Origin: a virus
Taxonomy: Duplodnaviria > Heunggongvirae > Uroviricota > Caudoviricetes
IMG/VR virus record: IMGVR_UViG_2660238209_000006
DNA: 4,719 nt
Strand: one strand, 5' to 3'
Part shown: piece by piece, positions 129-4,719 of the stretch
How positions within the stretch are numbered: position 1 is the stretch's first letter
Layout: each line of letters starts with the position of its first letter
Position numbers and translations under genes: made by a program
Notes under the pieces: model-generated
Database searches by the model: none
Seen by the model: only the letters and a program-made list of their open reading frames with translations
Told to the model about the DNA's origin: nothing

Positions 129-274
129 CGGCGATTACCCCCCTCGCTGGTTTTTCTTTCTTAAACAGTTCCAAATCACCGCCACTCCTCCACCGTCCGG
201 TACGGTGGAACCGACGCCTGTGGTGCAAGTCTGCGAATACGTTCAAGAACCCCGGCTGCCGCAATGTTTTTCAT
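129..274 (-). pseudogene. Frame-disrupted 5' end of the gene downstream of the replication initiator (possible DnaC/P-like helicase loader), truncated by the poly(T)
   Basis: Minus-strand ATG at 272-274 lies 6 nt after the stop of the upstream replication gene (TGA at 281-283) with a G-rich RBS-like stretch before it. It translates as MKNIAAAGVLERIRRLAPQASVPPYRTVEEWR, then stops at 176-178. A different frame continues open as DLELFKKEKPARGVIA into the poly(T). The DnaC-like call is from memory of the DnaC N-terminus (MKN start, EELLAWQKEQ-like stretch) and is weak. Confidence 0.3.
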
Positions 275-280
275 GCCACA

Positions 281-1357
281 TCACCCCCTGAATCCCGGCG
301 GAATTTCGGTATCCGGTTCAGAAATATGATTCACACAACGCTGGTTGTTCGTGCCGCTTACCGGGAGCAACCAGGGGTTTTCAAAATTCCGGTCCGGCCC
401 AAAAAACGTCGTCGCTCGCTGAACAAATTCCGTTCCCGTTTTCCCGGTAGCCGCCAGGTATCTTGCGTAACGCCTCACACCATCCAGTATGGCCTCTGGT
501 GGCACCCCCTCGCGTAATCTGGCCTTCCAGGCACTGAAAGCGGATTTCTTCGGGTTTGCCCCAGCACGCAACGGGTACTCCCGCCAGACCTGTTCGAACA
601 CATCCGGATAATCCACTCGTCCCACAGACTGACCGGTGTTTTCCGGGACTACCCGATCGGCTTCCCGCTGAATGGCGGAATCGGCTTCAGGCTGCTGAAG
701 TTGGTGTGATTGCTCCTGCCTTGCGGTCATCACCTGCTGCACAGCGCCCGAATCGGCTTTCAGCGCATACGCTGAATCGGCTTCCGGTGTCGTGCCTGCT
801 GGCTGACCAGGATTGACGGTCTGAACATCCCCTGCCTGGTTCGTGGCGTTTTTTACGCCATGGACCATAGTGTTTTGATCTTCTTGATCTGTATCTTTAT
901 CTGTATCTTTATCTGTCGTGACTCGTCGTGACATGTGCGTGACATTTCGTGACTCGCCGTGACAATCGCCATTTTGTTCCCGCTTTCTTTCCCTCTCTCG
1001 CTGCGCCCTCTTGCGCTCTGCCGGAGATTTTGCGGTTTGCGAAATATTGCCGTTGTCCTCTTTCAGCACCTGGCGTTTTTCCCATCCAGTGATTAAATCA
1101 CCATCAAGTACCCGCCCCTGCATCGTCTGCAAAATTGAATCAATTACCTCTTCTGTCACGTCGAGCGCACTTGCCAAATCTTCTGTCGTGACATCAATGT
1201 GACCTCGCGTGACATTTCGTGACGCGCTCACCAGGAGGTGGATATACACTGCCATCACTGTTGCAATTGGCTGCCCTGACACCCTGGCAATTGTTCGCCA
1301 CTTAGGGTCATTTGGCATGTCATGCCATAATCTGAGCCAGGCGTTAGCCATACTCAC
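281..1357 (-). CDS. Phage replication initiation protein (YdaU / O-like replisome organiser), 358 aa
   Basis: Supplied ORF with RBS GAGG 5 nt upstream of the ATG at 1355-1357. It sits directly after the CII-like gene in the rightward early operon. Phased iteron-like repeats lie inside the coding sequence, as in lambda O. The next gene is coupled 6 nt downstream. The N-terminal PKWRTIARVSGQP...YIHLLVSAS motif resembles Rac YdaU-type proteins from memory. Confidence 0.8.
   Translation of the reverse strand: MSMANAWLRLWHDMPNDPKWRTIARVSGQPIATVMAVYIHLLVSASRNVTRGHIDVTTEDLASALDVTEEVIDSILQTMQGRVLDGDLITGWEKRQVLKEDNGNISQTAKSPAERKRAQRERERKREQNGDCHGESRNVTHMSRRVTTDKDTDKDTDQEDQNTMVHGVKNATNQAGDVQTVNPGQPAGTTPEADSAYALKADSGAVQQVMTARQEQSHQLQQPEADSAIQREADRVVPENTGQSVGRVDYPDVFEQVWREYPLRAGANPKKSAFSAWKARLREGVPPEAILDGVRRYARYLAATGKTGTEFVQRATTFFGPDRNFENPWLLPVSGTNNQRCVNHISEPDTEIPPGFRG
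889..963. repeat. Putative replication origin core: tandem 12-mer (CTGTATCTTTAT x2, 889-912) followed by five helically phased CGTGAC iterons
   Basis: Directly seen: CGTGAC begins at 917, 927, 938, 948 and 958, spaced 10-11 bp, immediately after an AT-rich tandem repeat. The array lies inside the initiator gene in the segment encoding ...SRNVTHMSRRVTTDKDTDKDTD. Confidence 0.5.
1155..1223. repeat. Second iteron-like cluster inside the initiator gene, including an exact 17-bp direct repeat of the ori core
   Basis: GCGTGACATTTCGTGAC occurs exactly at 937-953 and at 1207-1223, 270 bp apart and in frame; both copies encode SRNVT. CGTGAC or its partial form also begins at 1187, about 1198, 1208 and 1218, with an inverted copy GTCACG at 1155-1160. 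Confidence 0.4.
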
Positions 1358-1422
1358 CTCTTCTGATACCGAATCTTTTTACTCACGAGTTGCCGGAAGC
1401 GATTCGATACGGCTATTGTCAG

Positions 1423-1848
1423 TCAATGTACTGCCACAGCATTTCCTGCCGGGCCACCACGGTTCATCTGATTGAAACCGGCGATTGCCACTGCGACAAA
1501 ATCATCAGCGTCTCTCACCAGTCGCTCCCGCGTCTCCACCAGCTCCCGAAAATAAGCTGAACTGTGGCTGCGCATTCTGGCCACCAGCAAAGGTGGCATT
1601 GCCTTTTCGATCGCTGGTAACAACGCCTGAATTTTTTCAACTGCATCAGGGGTGTCTTTCTCTACCCAGCGGAAAATTTTCTGGGTATTGCGAGCCAGGG
1701 CTTCCGGATGGCTGTCGTCATACAGTTCAGGAAACGTCATACCCAACTCAAAATAAGCCTGGGTTATTCCAGCTGCTGGAACTTTTTCGCCATCAGGACG
1801 CGCCCAGGCATTCATCGCCATGCGGATGTGTTCATGCTTGATTTTCAT
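1423..1848 (-). CDS. YdaT-like / CII-like early regulatory protein, 141 aa
   Basis: Supplied ORF with RBS AGGAG 8 nt upstream of the ATG. Its start overlaps the 3' end of the Cro-like gene by 17 nt, indicating an operon. Position between cro-like and replication genes matches lambdoid cII / Rac ydaT. The MKIKHEHI start resembles the YdaT family from memory. Confidence 0.65.
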   Translation of the reverse strand: MKIKHEHIRMAMNAWARPDGEKVPAAGITQAYFELGMTFPELYDDSHPEALARNTQKIFRWVEKDTPDAVEKIQALLPAIEKAMPPLLVARMRSHSSAYFRELVETRERLVRDADDFVAVAIAGFNQMNRGGPAGNAVAVH

Positions 1849-2113
1849 GAATCAAGCTCCTAGTAAGTGGTTGTGTTAACGTTTTGGTATCTTCCAGCTC
1901 GGGCCAAATATTCATCCAATCAAAAGGCCTTAGTTGCTGACGTGTAACTTCACCATTACTGGCTCGCTCAATAAGGACACATAACGATGCCCCTAACATT
2001 TGACCTTTACTCAATGCCTTTCTTAGATAACCGATGCTAGTACCACACTCACATGCAAACATACGCTGTTCATCTGACGAAAGAGAATTGAGAAATATTC
2101 TTAATTCTTCCAT
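1832..2113 (-). CDS. Cro / YdaS-like helix-turn-helix regulator, 93 aa
   Basis: Supplied ORF with RBS AGGAG 5 nt upstream of the ATG at 2111-2113. It is divergent from the repressor gene across an operator-bearing intergenic region. The segment CGTSIGYLRKAL is HTH-like. Confidence 0.75.
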   Translation of the reverse strand: MEELRIFLNSLSSDEQRMFACECGTSIGYLRKALSKGQMLGASLCVLIERASNGEVTRQQLRPFDWMNIWPELEDTKTLTQPLTRSLIHENQA

Positions 2114-2137
2114 AGCTACTCCTTAGTAAACACAGCA

Positions 2138-2165
2138 AGAATACCCACAGGTAAACAAAAGTCAA
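2138..2165 (-). promoter_or_regulatory. Candidate pR-type promoter for the cro-like operon
   Basis: On the minus strand: -35 TTGACT (plus 2160-2165), 16-nt spacer, -10 TATTCT (plus 2138-2143), giving a 5' UTR of roughly 20 nt before the ATG at 2113. The -10 overlaps OR1 and the -35 abuts OR2. Confidence 0.5.
2142..2153. promoter_or_regulatory. Operator OR1 candidate (TACCCACAGGTA)
   Basis: A 12-bp site with TACCC and GGTA half-sites, a near-match to the perfect palindrome TACCCATGGGTA found twice downstream of the repressor gene. It overlaps the candidate pR -10. Confidence 0.55.
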
Positions 2166-2177
2166 TACCCTTGGGTT
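2166..2177. promoter_or_regulatory. Operator OR2 candidate (TACCCTTGGGTT)
   Basis: Matches the TACCC-N2-GGGT pattern, 24 bp centre-to-centre from OR1. A 9-bp inverted repeat GGTAAACAA (2150-2158) / TTGTTTACC (2176-2184) also spans this region. Confidence 0.55.
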
Positions 2178-2220
2178 GTTTACCTTGCGGTAATCGCATC
2201 TATTATTTACCTATGGACAA
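2176..2220 (+). promoter_or_regulatory. Candidate pRM-type promoter giving a leaderless repressor mRNA, with a weak OR3-like site
   Basis: -10 TATTAT at 2201-2206 ends 6 nt before the repressor ATG at 2213, with only a weak -35 (TTTACC / TTGTTT around 2176-2184) and no Shine-Dalgarno. This is analogous to leaderless lambda cI from pRM. TACCTATGGACA (2208-2219) is a 3-mismatch operator-like site overlapping the start codon. Confidence 0.4.
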
Positions 2221-2632
2221 ATATGAATTTAGACGACAACAACTCATCAAAATTCGTGATGAGAAATGCGATGGTAAAGCGGTTAACGTGGCCAGAAAGA
2301 TCGGTCGCGAGCCTTCTTATGTATCAAGAATGTTGTACCCAGAGGGGAAAAAAGGAAAAAAACGGATCGCTGATGATATGGTGGAGATTATAGAAGAGTC
2401 CTTTGGGTTACCCCGGGGATGGATGGATGGTATCGTTTCATCATCAACGAACACAGCCTCCAATTATGAAACAAGGGTTCTAACGCCACGACAACGTATT
2501 TTTTTAGATCTCTTAGACGAACTGCCAGAAAGTGAAGCGGATAACTTATTAAAAACTCTTGAAGAGAAAAAACAGTATTACAATATGATCTACGAAGAAA
2601 TCCGTAAAAAGAAAGCACAAAACGCATCATAA
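2213..2632 (+). CDS. Prophage repressor (RacR / CI-like functional analogue), HTH N-terminus, 139 aa
   Basis: Open frame from 2171, but the first ATG is at 2213 directly behind a -10 element. The translation MDKYEFRRQQ...GKAVNVARKIGREPSYVSRML has an HTH-like segment. No obvious S24 peptidase Ser/Lys motifs were seen in the C-terminal half. It is divergent from the cro-like gene and flanked on both sides by the same palindromic operator motif. Confidence 0.75.
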   Translation: MDKYEFRRQQLIKIRDEKCDGKAVNVARKIGREPSYVSRMLYPEGKKGKKRIADDMVEIIEESFGLPRGWMDGIVSSSTNTASNYETRVLTPRQRIFLDLLDELPESEADNLLKTLEEKKQYYNMIYEEIRKKKAQNAS

Positions 2633-2674
2633 CTCACCAAACAACCAGTCACCAGTTAAGACACATCAAAAAAT

Positions 2675-2686
2675 TACCCATGGGTA
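2675..2686. promoter_or_regulatory. Operator OL1: perfect 12-bp palindrome TACCCATGGGTA
   Basis: Directly seen; the site is its own reverse complement. It lies 43 bp after the repressor stop. Confidence 0.7.
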
Positions 2687-2699
2687 TTTACTTTTTAAA

Positions 2700-2711
2700 T
2701 ACCCATGGGTA
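2700..2711. promoter_or_regulatory. Operator OL2: second perfect copy of TACCCATGGGTA
   Basis: Identical 12-mer, 25 bp centre-to-centre from OL1. The intervening AT-rich TTTACTTTTTAAA and the following TATCCT (2710-2715) could supply -35/-10 elements for a rightward pL-type promoter. Confidence 0.7.
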
Positions 2712-2897
2712 TCCTTCCTTTCATACCAACCCACCCCGTCCCACAGAACGCAGGGCAATACTTCGAGTTACCAGGCAGTGGTCAGGGGGTAAGTAGCCAG
2801 CCCGAGGCGTAAGAACATGACGGCAGGGTTCAACTTTAATAACTATGCAGCAGGTTTTTGTTCCGCTACCCCGGCGTTAAGGGGAAATGAGGTCAGC

Positions 2898-3050
2898 ATG
2901 GATACTATCGATCTTGGCAACAGCGAATCTCTGGTATGCGGCGTGTTTCCCAACCAGGACGGTACGTTTACCGCGATGACGTATACCAAAAGTAAAACGT
3001 TTAAAACCGAAGCTGGCGCGCATCGCTGGTTAGCAAGAAACTCCGACTGA
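2898..3050 (+). CDS. Small YdaF-like (DUF1391-like) protein, 50 aa; possible longer form starting at 2817
   Basis: ATG at 2898 is preceded by GAGG with a 5-nt spacer and translates as MDTIDLGNSESLVCGVFPNQDGTFTAMTYTKSKTFKTEAGAHRWLARNSD. The stop TGA (3048-3050) overlaps the next gene's ATG (3050-3052). Resemblance to Rac YdaF is from memory. The in-frame ATG at 2817 has a weaker RBS. Confidence 0.55.
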   Translation: MDTIDLGNSESLVCGVFPNQDGTFTAMTYTKSKTFKTEAGAHRWLARNSD

Positions 3051-3061
3051 TGAGGTTGACG

Positions 3062-3700
3062 ATGGAATTTAAAGATTTACCTCCTTCAATCCAGGAGATT
3101 GCAGCACACACACTTCGTCATCGTCTGAACGAACTTGAATTGGAATCGGTAACGAAAAAAGACACTGATAATATGGCTCGTAATGTGCGCGATGCGTTTA
3201 CCGGATTGTATTTCTGTGCGTCTATAAATAAACACGACTCAGAGAGTGTGGCAAATAAAATTGCAGAAACGACAGCGCAAAACATCAATACGAAACCAAC
3301 GGAAGAAGAAATTGATCAGTTTGCTCATGATGCTGGTTTAAAAAACAAGAAAGAAAAATCGCCATATGCGGGGAACATGTTTGTTTATGACAATCTCATC
3401 AGAATTCGTGGCGAAATTCCGGCGGAATACCTGGCAAGAGTCCATCAGGCATTGCTTAAAAATTTGGAAACAGAATTATTTGATGGCAACACTAACGGTT
3501 TCTTCATGGTATCAGGCCTTGATAAAGACTGGGATGCAGAAAAACGCTGGAATGTTGCTACATGGTTATTCAGTAACAGAGCCGCTGCACTGGAAGCTTC
3601 GGCATGTATTTGCGGCCTGTTCTTAACAGACCACAAATATAATCTGGATGTGTACAGTTATATTTACGCTGAACACGGTCCACTCTGGATTGACTGGTAA
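3062..3700 (+). CDS. Uncharacterised protein, about 212 aa (216 aa if started at 3050); no family recognised
   Basis: Long supplied ORF. ATG at 3062 has GAGG 6 nt upstream; the alternative ATG at 3050 overlaps the upstream stop (TGATG). No transmembrane stretch, P-loop or nuclease motif was recognised by eye. It is the second gene downstream of the OL-type operators. Confidence 0.7.
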   Translation: MEFKDLPPSIQEIAAHTLRHRLNELELESVTKKDTDNMARNVRDAFTGLYFCASINKHDSESVANKIAETTAQNINTKPTEEEIDQFAHDAGLKNKKEKSPYAGNMFVYDNLIRIRGEIPAEYLARVHQALLKNLETELFDGNTNGFFMVSGLDKDWDAEKRWNVATWLFSNRAAALEASACICGLFLTDHKYNLDVYSYIYAEHGPLWIDW

Positions 3701-3910
3701 TTATAAGGAAACACCAGCAGGGCCGCGGCGACCAACAGAACGATTAAAATCAATAATGCCATTATAAAGGACATTATTTAATTTATCGTCGAATGCTGAT
3801 TCTGTGAGCCTCAACTCTGAATGAGTTTTTAATAACCCTGATTGCCTGAGTTGATTTACCAGGCATTCAATCTGTTTTTCAATAAGCGGATTTCTTTTTT
3901 TGTTTGGCAT
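3701..3910 (-). CDS. Small basic hypothetical protein, 69 aa (73 aa from the upstream ATG at 3920-3922)
   Basis: Minus-strand ORF with a strong RBS GGAGGA 5 nt before the ATG at 3908-3910. Translation starts MPNKKRNPLIEKQIECLVNQLRQSG.... It sits in a visibly AT-rich island, and its stop codon (3701-3703) directly abuts the stop of the convergent 212-aa gene (3698-3700), forming TAATTA. Confidence 0.5.
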   Translation of the reverse strand: MPNKKRNPLIEKQIECLVNQLRQSGLLKTHSELRLTESAFDDKLNNVLYNGIIDFNRSVGRRGPAGVSL

Positions 3911-3922
3911 TTTATCCTCCAT

Positions 3923-4432
3923 TGAGGTTCTGGGTTAAAAATGGAGACCAACACGCTGTCACGTGTGGTCGTGCGCCGGACACGGATAAGAATCCGGTAC
4001 TGACAGTTTACTGAAAGGATATTTCCCTGAAAAGTCAGGGCATAACGCGAAAGCGTACGGCGAAGCTCTTTCCCTTAGAAGGCTTGTCGTTAGATTTCTT
4101 CGAACGTGCGCTTCCGGTTGTGGCACTCCGCGAAATGGCGCGGCGGTAAGTATGGCGGGGTTATTCCTTCCCCGTTGAGGACACCGGGTTGTCAGGTTGA
4201 CCATACGCTTAAGTGACAACCCCGCTGCAACGCCCTCTGTTATCAATTTTCTGGTGACGTTTGGCGGTATCAGTTTTACTCCGTGGCTGCTCTGCCGCCC
4301 TTTTTAAAGTGAATTTTGTGATGCGGTGAATGCGGCTAAGCGCACGCGGAACAGTTAAAACAAGCGGTCTTTTACGGGCGTAACGGGAATGCTCTGTATC
4401 CGGCGTTAATTGTTAACTGGTTAACGTCACCT
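3923..4432. other. GC-rich, hairpin-dense region with no convincing CDS; candidate structured RNA or decayed gene remnant
   Basis: No ORF with a plausible start or RBS; the 95-aa minus ORF is Arg/Pro-rich junk-like. Local hairpins: CCCTGA-AAAG-TCAGGG (4025-4040), ACGC-GAAA-GCGT (4045-4056), CCGCG-AAATGG-CGCGG (4128-4143), CGGGG-loop-CCCCG (4156-4174), and a 9-bp stem GGGTTGTCA / TGACAACCC (4186-4194 / 4214-4222). Confidence 0.25.
4186..4222. repeat. Perfect 9-bp inverted repeat with a 19-nt loop (GGGTTGTCA ... TGACAACCC)
   Basis: Directly seen. A perfect 9-bp inverted repeat at this spacing is unlikely by chance in about 500 bp. Function is unknown (RNA hairpin or protein-binding site). Confidence 0.5.
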
Positions 4433-4719
4433 TGAACCGCCCCGGGTTTCCTGGAGAGTGTTTTATCTGTGAACTCAGGCTGCCAGATCATCGTTTCCGA
4501 TGGAAGCATAATAAGCTTTTTCTGCTTCTGCCGGAGGAGTATGGCCCAGCCTTCCCAGCAATCGTCGATTGTTATACCAGTCCACCCACGTTAGTGTGGC
4601 CAGTTCCACTTCTGCACGGTTTTTCCAGCTCTTACGGTGTATTACCTCCGCTTTGTAAAGACCATTGATGCTCTCAGCCATCGCGTTGTCATACGAGTCG
4701 CCTGTACTCCCTGTTGATG
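4433..4719 (-). mobile_element. IS3-family insertion sequence (IS629 / IS1203-like), right terminus and 3' part, continuing beyond the window
   Basis: Terminal sequence TGAACCGCCCCGGGTTTCCTGGAGAG starting at 4433 matches IS629-type terminal inverted repeats from memory (TG terminus). An IS3-family OrfB C-terminus is encoded immediately inside it. Confidence 0.8.
4475..4719 (-). CDS. IS3-family transposase OrfB, C-terminal fragment (N-terminus lies outside the window)
   Basis: The minus-strand frame is open to the window edge: ...STGDSYDNAMAESINGLYKAEVIHRKSWKNRAEVELATLTWVDWYNNRRLLGRLGHTPPAEAEKAYYASIGNDDLAA, stop at 4475-4477. The DNAxAES...LK.E and WYNNRR(L)H motifs are typical of the IS3-family integrase C-terminus. 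The supplied 68-aa ORF is only the part after an internal Met. Confidence 0.85.
   Translation of the reverse strand, partial: STGSTGDSYDNAMAESINGLYKAEVIHRKSWKNRAEVELATLTWVDWYNNRRLLGRLGHTPPAEAEKAYYASIGNDDLAA

Follow-up and report, generated by a model that had tools for sequence, protein, structure and literature searches.

The 510-nt region at positions 3923-4432 of the window (the whole stretch of DNA analyzed, 4,719 nucleotides long) is almost certainly the noncoding interval of a dicBF-type early-left operon, one that inhibits cell division, from a Qin/Rac-like lambdoid prophage of E. coli. [quoted passage not shown] Work on DicF dates back to 1989, and a form of 190 nt has been known from 1990 on. 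The DicF locus and its structured precursor are thus familiar, and aside from the upstream fold, a conserved RNA domain without an Rfam match, the locus is ordinary. As a DicF locus it has annotation value only, being one of several thousand near-identical copies. The module B fold is the part that goes beyond known DicF work: in the literature searched, some older work excepted, there was no published fold or role for the 5′ 137 nt of the 190-nt RNA.

The DicF gene and its immediate surroundings

A preliminary description of this DNA had suggested that the region might be a structured noncoding RNA or a cis-acting site. The kind of element was right, as judged by an Rfam match and by covariation, but the identity with DicF had been missed. 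When the Rfam search that it had recommended was run, the covariance model for DicF (RF00039) matched positions 4249-4300 of the + strand with a score of 75 bits (gathering threshold 48, E 7.5e-16), and the match is full length (model positions 1-52). The gene, as placed by Rfam, by a terminator-like site, and by its near-identity to dicF of K-12, spans 53 nt at 4248-4300 (+). According to the structure line of the Rfam alignment, the RNA has the architecture of DicF, in which a Rho-independent terminator hairpin with its U-run comes after a single-stranded 5′ seed. The terminator stem is formed by 4263-4274 and 4286-4299 and is followed by a U-run at 4301-4305 (terminator scan and Rfam structure line, + strand); the scan reported the terminator-like site with its T-run at 4283-4298. 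The sequence is identical to K-12 dicF at 52 of 53 positions. The sole change is a G in place of an A at 4286, and pairing is kept because this G still pairs, now as G-U instead of A-U.

Nothing besides DicF was found across 3650-4500 at a permissive Rfam threshold of E ≤ 10. The earlier statement that no tRNA or tmRNA could be recognized also held up, since ARAGORN reported zero genes in the window and Rfam yielded no tRNA match in the same interval at E ≤ 10. Downstream of the gene, positions 4301-4432 (+) are the first 132 nt of a dicF-dicB spacer of about 180 nt (the dicB 5′ leader), which is recognized by its identity to the prophage of E. coli O111 11128 and is truncated by an insertion sequence (IS). 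No stable fold was detected in this segment (z +0.61 relative to shuffled sequence).

Homologous loci and operon context

Membership in a dicBF operon rests on identical, uninterrupted loci elsewhere, because dicB is not in the window. All 510 nt of the region are 100% identical to many E. coli chromosomes, including the interval upstream of dicB in O111 prophages, and the region is matched in 4721 of 5426 complete genomes, at a median of two places per genome. Its identity to the ydfC-dicB interval of the K-12 prophage Qin is about 91%. The closest comparison was made with the lambdoid prophage of O111:H- 11128, from which the window differs at nine positions across about 179-4432, and at 27 positions across 129-4432. 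The gene order in that prophage is repressor, DUF1391 gene, 212-aa gene, the match to 3923-4432, dicB, a DUF1482 (ydfD-type) gene, and exonuclease, and the uninterrupted dicB start lies 48 nt past the point that corresponds to window position 4432. In K-12 Qin the layout is ydfC, 340 noncoding nt, dicF, 174 nt, and dicB. An alignment of the window with K-12 and the phages Tritos and HannyBb is nearly invariant across about 4085-4390, and DicF is annotated at the homologous place in Tritos. A search for further loci by DicB returned 80, all of them 100% identical, and so added little diversity.

The upstream half of the dicBF-type arrangement is present in the window, with a DicA-like repressor and a ydfA-like gene, and the window lacks dicB owing to the IS. 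The repressor gene, of the DicA/CI type (2213-2632, +), matches phrog_5736 'transcriptional regulator' (E 4.7e-70) and is a CDS in O111 11128; its position corresponds to that of dicA in K-12 Qin, and its orientation is that of the operon. It is followed by a near-perfect palindrome with 16-bp arms at 2675-2711 (TACCCATGGGTATTTA...TAAATACCCATGGGTA), which is terminator-like on both strands and is probably either the operator/PL-type promoter region or the terminator of the repressor gene. The promoter dicBp of Qin lies at the corresponding position (PMC10448788). The first gene of the operon is the ydfA-like gene at 2898-3050 (+), which matches Pfam PF07151 (E 1.9e-28) and is named 'DUF1391 family protein' in RefSeq. 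Next is a putative CDS of 212 aa at 3062-3700 (+; phrog_2151, E 2.5e-147), a cargo gene that replaces ydfB/ydfC, and on the opposite strand a gene for 69 aa at 3701-3910 (-; phrog_4274, E 1.2e-51); both are CDSs in O111 11128. A GGAGG motif precedes the ATG of the 69-aa gene at 3910, and a promoter-like site lies at 3938-3909 (-). Judging from this layout, the promoter and 5′ UTR of the gene must fall in about 3911-3968, at the start of the region.

The left part of the window encodes, on the - strand, a replication-initiator-like gene (281-1357), a YdaT-family gene, and a YdaS/Cro-like gene. Short direct repeats are clustered within the initiator-like gene at 881-960 and 1185-1230; they include TATCTTTATCTG, and CGTGAC about five times and then again about four times. 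By analogy, these repeats resemble origin iterons embedded in a gene of the lambda O type. At the extreme left end, a run of 128 T is followed by about 50 bases without a counterpart in the O111 prophage, and this segment (1-178) has the look of a chimeric contig end or of an artefact of assembly or sequencing. The other end of the window lies inside the IS, which is a typical short-read contig break.

Insertion between dicF and dicB

The preliminary description had placed the end of an IS directly after the region, and this boundary proved exact. Homology to O111 stops at 4432, and the end of IS1203/IS629 (TGAACCGCCCCGGG) begins at 4433. The remainder of the window (4433-4719, -) is the end of this IS3-family element and includes the transposase C-terminus at 4475-4681 (-), which is recognized by the Pfam models rve_3 (8.1e-09) and rve_2 (2.9e-07). 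The IS end is found at ≥99% identity in 3408 records, where it is annotated as 'IS3-like element IS1203 family transposase'. As read from the aligned loci, the element sits between dicF and dicB, such that the operon is interrupted and no gene inside the region is hit. Because the insertion point is 48 nt upstream of the dicB start, dicF and its terminator are intact, and dicB is uncoupled or lost. The strain might therefore be able to make DicF from this prophage, and not DicB.

The same IS junction is present in E. coli O111:NM FWSEC0005. Beyond the IS1203 copy in that genome lies a partial MobA/MobL gene, and not dicB (locus L137, 7406-8608). A far flank of this kind makes a rearrangement or deletion more probable than a simple insertion, and the arrangement indicates that IS-mediated deletion or rearrangement of the prophage left arm would have occurred in the FWSEC0005 lineage.

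A conserved four-way junction upstream of DicF

Module B comprises a closing helix, P1 (4117-4124/4224-4231), and three further helices, H1 (4128-4132/4139-4143), H2 (4156-4160/4170-4174), and H3 (4186-4194/4214-4222), all formed by + strand RNA. The perfect 9-bp inverted repeat that had been singled out earlier is present as described, and its arms at 4186-4194 and 4214-4222 are those of H3. A pseudoknot pairs GUAUGG of the H1-H2 junction (4150-4155, +) with CCAUAC in the H3 loop (4201-4206). This structure was derived from 72 distinct copies. With 73 distinct sequences in a model-based alignment, pairing holds in 95.5% of cells, compared with 33-57% when the structure is slid by 1-3 columns. 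Eleven pairs are changed on both sides, versus 4.9 ± 1.6 in shuffles (1 of 500 shuffles reached the observed value), and the covariation score is 0.124 versus at most 0.085 in all controls, values that should be read in light of the close relationship among the sequences, which might hold perhaps ten independent events, and of the fitting of this model-based alignment to the structure. A plain MAFFT alignment gives the same picture.

The compensatory changes are distributed over several helices and lineages. In the Stx2c type, U-A replaces both C-G and U-G in the P1 helix. In H2, a G-C pair is replaced by U-A or A-U in at least four lineages. In H3, U-A becomes C-G in the P1/P7 group of phages and, a second time, in L296, a copy of lambdoid type from a metagenome, and the pseudoknot carries a U-A to C-G change in phage P1, along with U-G intermediates. 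The G-U intermediates in module B are compatible with + strand RNA only. Furthermore, the unpaired nucleotides in the junction and loops are nearly invariant. No Rfam family matches module B at E ≤ 10.

Folding and a search for covariation had both been advised at the outset. Covariation is present in 4117-4231. The region as a whole is predicted to fold with an energy barely below that of shuffled sequence (z -1.93 for the + strand and -2.18 for the - strand). Since stability alone is not beyond chance, real structure is demonstrated by the Rfam match and covariation, and not by the density of hairpins. Similarly, the description of the region as GC-rich holds relative to its neighbors (0.512 versus 0.421 for the adjacent cargo genes), but not beyond such a comparison.

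The proposal that a protein gene has decayed here and left a frameshifted remnant fares poorly and is now very improbable. The preliminary description was correct in finding no credible ORF: the + strand of 3923-4432 has none of ≥40 aa, and the only long ORF is a 95-aa frame with a TTG start on the - strand, which has no match in Pfam or PHROG. A gene remnant would be consistent with a 36-aa frame on the + strand (4106-4216) that matches phrog_8854 ('unknown function') over 25 residues, and with the 'hypothetical proteins' that are annotated here in some phage records. This match was the only one returned by scans of all frames against Pfam and PHROGs, and it was judged spurious, the frame being unconserved. 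Because the 4106-4216 frame is not conserved in homologs, phrog_8854 itself probably arose from spurious ORFs called across the RNA domain. Among 187 distinct copies, neither the start nor the end of the stop-free frame is conserved, the frame extending 3-53 codons upstream and 9-26 codons downstream, and copies are separated by indels of 1 nt and 4 nt. In addition, no frame has a Pfam match, and the matched stretch carries no RefSeq annotation in the 20 genomes listed. The substitutions, by contrast, keep RNA pairing: they are compensatory and include G-U intermediates that function only in RNA of the + strand.

Even less probable is that the region encodes a retron-like noncoding RNA, as the preliminary description had ventured, or a tRNA-like RNA that is processed by RNase P. 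The retron version finds no reverse transcriptase gene nearby, either in the window or in the annotation of a 12.5-kb stretch of O111 whose copy of the region is identical. The topology of module B is admittedly cloverleaf-like, with four helices and a tertiary pair from junction to loop, phage P1 carries tRNA genes downstream of its own module B copy, and there is a very weak Rfam match to the tRNA-like mascRNA (E 8.6). Nevertheless, ARAGORN is negative for tRNA and tmRNA, the helix and loop sizes of module B are far from those of tRNA, and it is RNase III, rather than RNase P, that the 190-nt RNA needs for its 5′ end (PMC10448788).

Transcription and processing

In K-12, DicF has no promoter of its own and is excised from the polycistronic transcript of a DicA-repressed promoter, wherein RNase III makes the 5′ end of the 190-nt species and RNase E that of the 53-nt sRNA (PMC10448788; K-12 processing is also covered by PMC5069750). 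The published account thus treats the hairpins as substrates for processing. The 3′ end of DicF is set by an intrinsic terminator, and in read-through transcripts a second RNase III cut yields a 72-nt form (PMC9438474). Wild-type K-12 cells produce a terminated transcript of 1,146 nt, and read-through species were detected only when RNase E was inactivated (PMC10448788). The 190-nt species is a discrete RNA in vivo, with a level that rises and is stable in stationary phase (PMC10448788).

By extension from K-12, transcription in this prophage would begin at a repressor-controlled PL-type promoter upstream of the ydfA-like gene, proceed through the cargo genes, and enter a structured, untranslated stretch of about 570 nt. 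A long imperfect helix would then be cut by RNase III at its base, near 4111-4114, to produce a species of about 190 nt. RNase E would cut the single-stranded linker at 4247/4248, and the intrinsic terminator at 4263-4305 would fix the 3′ end. The product would be the 53-nt Hfq-dependent sRNA DicF, which represses ftsZ and other mRNAs according to the K-12 literature. Read-through transcripts would normally reach dicB, which is no longer joined here.

The leader upstream of module B, called module A (3969-4116, +), was delineated from the minimum free energy (MFE) fold, and conservation with K-12 and phage Tritos begins at its left end, near 3969. It includes hairpins at 3975-3998 and 4025-4040 as well as the long imperfect helix formed by 4048-4065 and 4098-4116. 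Two of the hairpins that had been described earlier are found here: the CCCTGA/TCAGGG hairpin at 4025-4030/4035-4040, and the GAAA tetraloop hairpin, readable as CGC-GAAA-GCG at about 4046-4055. When measured by length back from the terminator, the 5′ end of the 190-nt species falls at about 4111-4114 (PMC10448788 Fig. S1), in the 3′ strand of the long helix, which is the probable RNase III substrate in the predicted fold. Covariation in this helix is weak, with only G-U-compatible changes plus some mismatches. The GAAA tetraloop hairpin at 4046-4055 competes with the long helix, and its stem is weakened in many homologs by G4047A or U4056C. The long helix is favored over this hairpin, a choice that covariation does not settle.

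The single-stranded linker, 4232-4247 (+), ends at the RNase E site, which is the 5′ end of DicF (DicF coordinates; PMC10448788 for RNase E). The MFE fold of the 190-nt RNA also paired 4137-4160 with the 3′ arm of the DicF terminator; this pairing was dropped because it is absent from single-sequence MFE folds of the Stx2c-type and P1 copies. A further potential long-range interaction is seen between 4105-4113 (CGUGCGCUU) and the perfectly complementary 4338-4346 (AAGCGCACG), 3′ of DicF. This pairing would enclose both module B and DicF and would compete with the upstream RNase III helix.

Two natural variants (L024 1630-1759, -; L069 5219-5348, -) carry apparent deletions between CGCGAAA repeats (4046-4052 and 4129-4135) that remove the 3′ strand of the RNase III helix along with the 5′ strand of the P1 helix. 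Either these copies are degenerate, or they show that the domain can do without its closing helix.

Distribution of module B and its downstream partners

Most E. coli genomes contain module B, as do several lineages of lambdoid phages and phage-plasmids of the P1/P7 type. The domain alone (4117-4233) is matched at 88-89% identity in Stx2c-converting phages and in cdtI, Ayreon, and 2H10, and at 82% identity in Salmonella phage F1055. For phages P1 and P7, the match covers the core (4128-4224), at 77-82%. A scan of contigs with a DicF core pattern recovered only 8 loci, and a metagenome scan gave many chance matches, the true ones being only copies of the enterobacterial type.

In lambdoid copies, module B is always trailed, 8-32 nt on, by a G+C-rich hairpin and U-run. 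The cassette that follows module B varies by lineage, with at least eight types, and only the canonical and L040 types are scored by Rfam as DicF. Module B is thus more conserved than DicF, because the body of the cassette differs between lineages and few cassettes are scored by Rfam. Different seed-plus-terminator cassettes occupy the DicF position at L015 (3117-3175), L017, L035, L069, L105, L046, and L124, and most of them escape the Rfam DicF model. By their position and form, such cassettes in other prophages may be uncharacterized DicF-like sRNAs with other targets.

The surroundings of the domain vary among phages. In the Ayreon/2H10/Stx2c type, module B lies about 290 nt downstream of an annotated PL promoter, with no N gene annotated between them. 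The homolog in phage P1 overlaps an annotated 'dicF-like region' just downstream of the C1-controlled ban promoter; it begins about 25 nt after the Pban start and is followed by a strong terminator, tRNA genes, and then ban, 2.6 kb downstream. In several phages, isrK and C4 antisense RNAs (immI-type antirepressor control) are encoded near module B, at distances of a few hundred bases to about 2.5 kb (L105 1171-1359, +; L069 4732-4920, -; L015 539-727, -; L016 29-105, -). Where they share the strand of module B, they lie downstream of the DicF-like cassette.

Given that the domain is present in the P1 ban leader and before many cassettes that are not DicF, the conserved unit suggested by these alignments is module B rather than DicF.

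Possible functions of the domain

The best estimate, offered tentatively and with less than even confidence, is that module B is the folded 5′ domain of the 190-nt species, where it would define processing sites and keep the downstream seed unpaired. More generally, and held with the same restraint, module B might be the common 5′ domain of modular phage sRNAs of the 190-nt DicF type, in which the 3′ seed-plus-terminator cassette would be exchangeable. Candidate jobs for such a domain include setting the RNase III and RNase E sites, maintaining an unpaired seed, protecting the RNA, and binding a protein. This proposal draws on the discrete 190-nt species, which is stable in stationary phase in vivo (PMC10448788), on the location of its 5′ end 3-6 nt before the P1 helix, and on the joining of module B to at least eight different 3′ cassettes. 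The promoter of phage P1 likewise sets the RNA 5′ end just before the domain. Two observations argue against it: the natural variants L024 and L069 exist without the 5′ strand of the P1 helix, and a merely protective structure needs no invariant loops.

In a different and unlikely explanation, which would sit alongside the DicF identification without conflict, module B would be a cis-acting RNA that enables read-through of the adjacent terminator to early genes (dicB, recombination genes, or ban). The near-invariant junction and loop nucleotides fit recognition by a conserved host machine. It would act by analogy like the put RNAs of HK022, or as a factor-dependent attenuator. The order of elements is constant in all contexts observed, with a repressor-controlled early promoter, module B, a terminator-like hairpin with U-run, and early genes. 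The absence of an annotated N gene in the roughly 290 nt between PL and module B of the Ayreon/2H10/Stx2c type would be in keeping with such a role, as would the P1 copy, about 25 nt past the Pban start, with a strong terminator following and ban 2.6 kb on. If correct, module B would bear on how lambdoid phages without N, and phage P1, pass an early terminator, and the domain would count as an antiterminator or attenuator RNA with no relation to put. However, each locus was found to have a single copy and the rightward operon none, the terminators could just as well be the 3′ ends of sRNAs, and wild-type K-12 yields the terminated 1,146-nt transcript, with read-through only when RNase E is inactivated (PMC10448788). 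There is also no likeness to put RNA in sequence or architecture. Identity with a put antiterminator was rejected, since the 115 nt of module B form a four-way junction with a pseudoknot, and put consists of two stem-loops (PMC9378689). A search for a put-like fold in the 185-nt leader at 2712-2900 found none (z +1.74).

It is possible, if somewhat doubtful, that 4117-4231 represents an undescribed class of phage RNA, a functional domain recognized by host machinery, rather than inert DicF precursor sequence, that would serve either in the cis control of read-through or as the scaffold of modular sRNAs with swappable seeds. As a working model, the 5′ domain of the 190-nt species is preferred.

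Comparison with known systems

[quoted passage not shown] It shares with the window about 280 conserved nt upstream and about 130 nt downstream of dicF, and the order of repressor, DUF1391 gene, cargo genes, and dicF. Unlike Qin, the window has the 212-aa gene and the opposite-strand 69-aa gene instead of ydfB/ydfC, and dicB and everything beyond are separated by IS1203/IS629. The terminal sequence and transposase C-terminus of this element are ≥99% identical to annotated copies, but the window holds only 287 bp of it, with the other end outside.

The 'dicF-like region' of the P1/P7 ban leader shares a module B homolog with compensatory changes in H2, H3, and the pseudoknot, and this homolog is similarly placed, with a repressor-controlled promoter just before it and an intrinsic terminator after it. 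It differs in that it has no Rfam DicF match and its closing helix is of another sequence. Moreover, the domain is at the 5′ end of the transcript and is not freed by RNase III, and tRNAs and ban lie downstream in place of dicB.

The comparison with putL and putR of HK022 is one of possible function only. RNAs of the put type act by binding the zinc-binding domain of the RNA polymerase beta′ subunit, which suppresses terminators further downstream. Both they and module B are structured RNAs that a lambdoid phage carries in an early operon, upstream of terminators and with no N gene annotated nearby; the HK022 annotation consulted for this comparison contains no put features. A put RNA is a two-stem V of about 73 nt (PMC9378689). 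It has a triplex, whereas module B has a pseudoknot, is present in single copy, and shares no sequence similarity with put.
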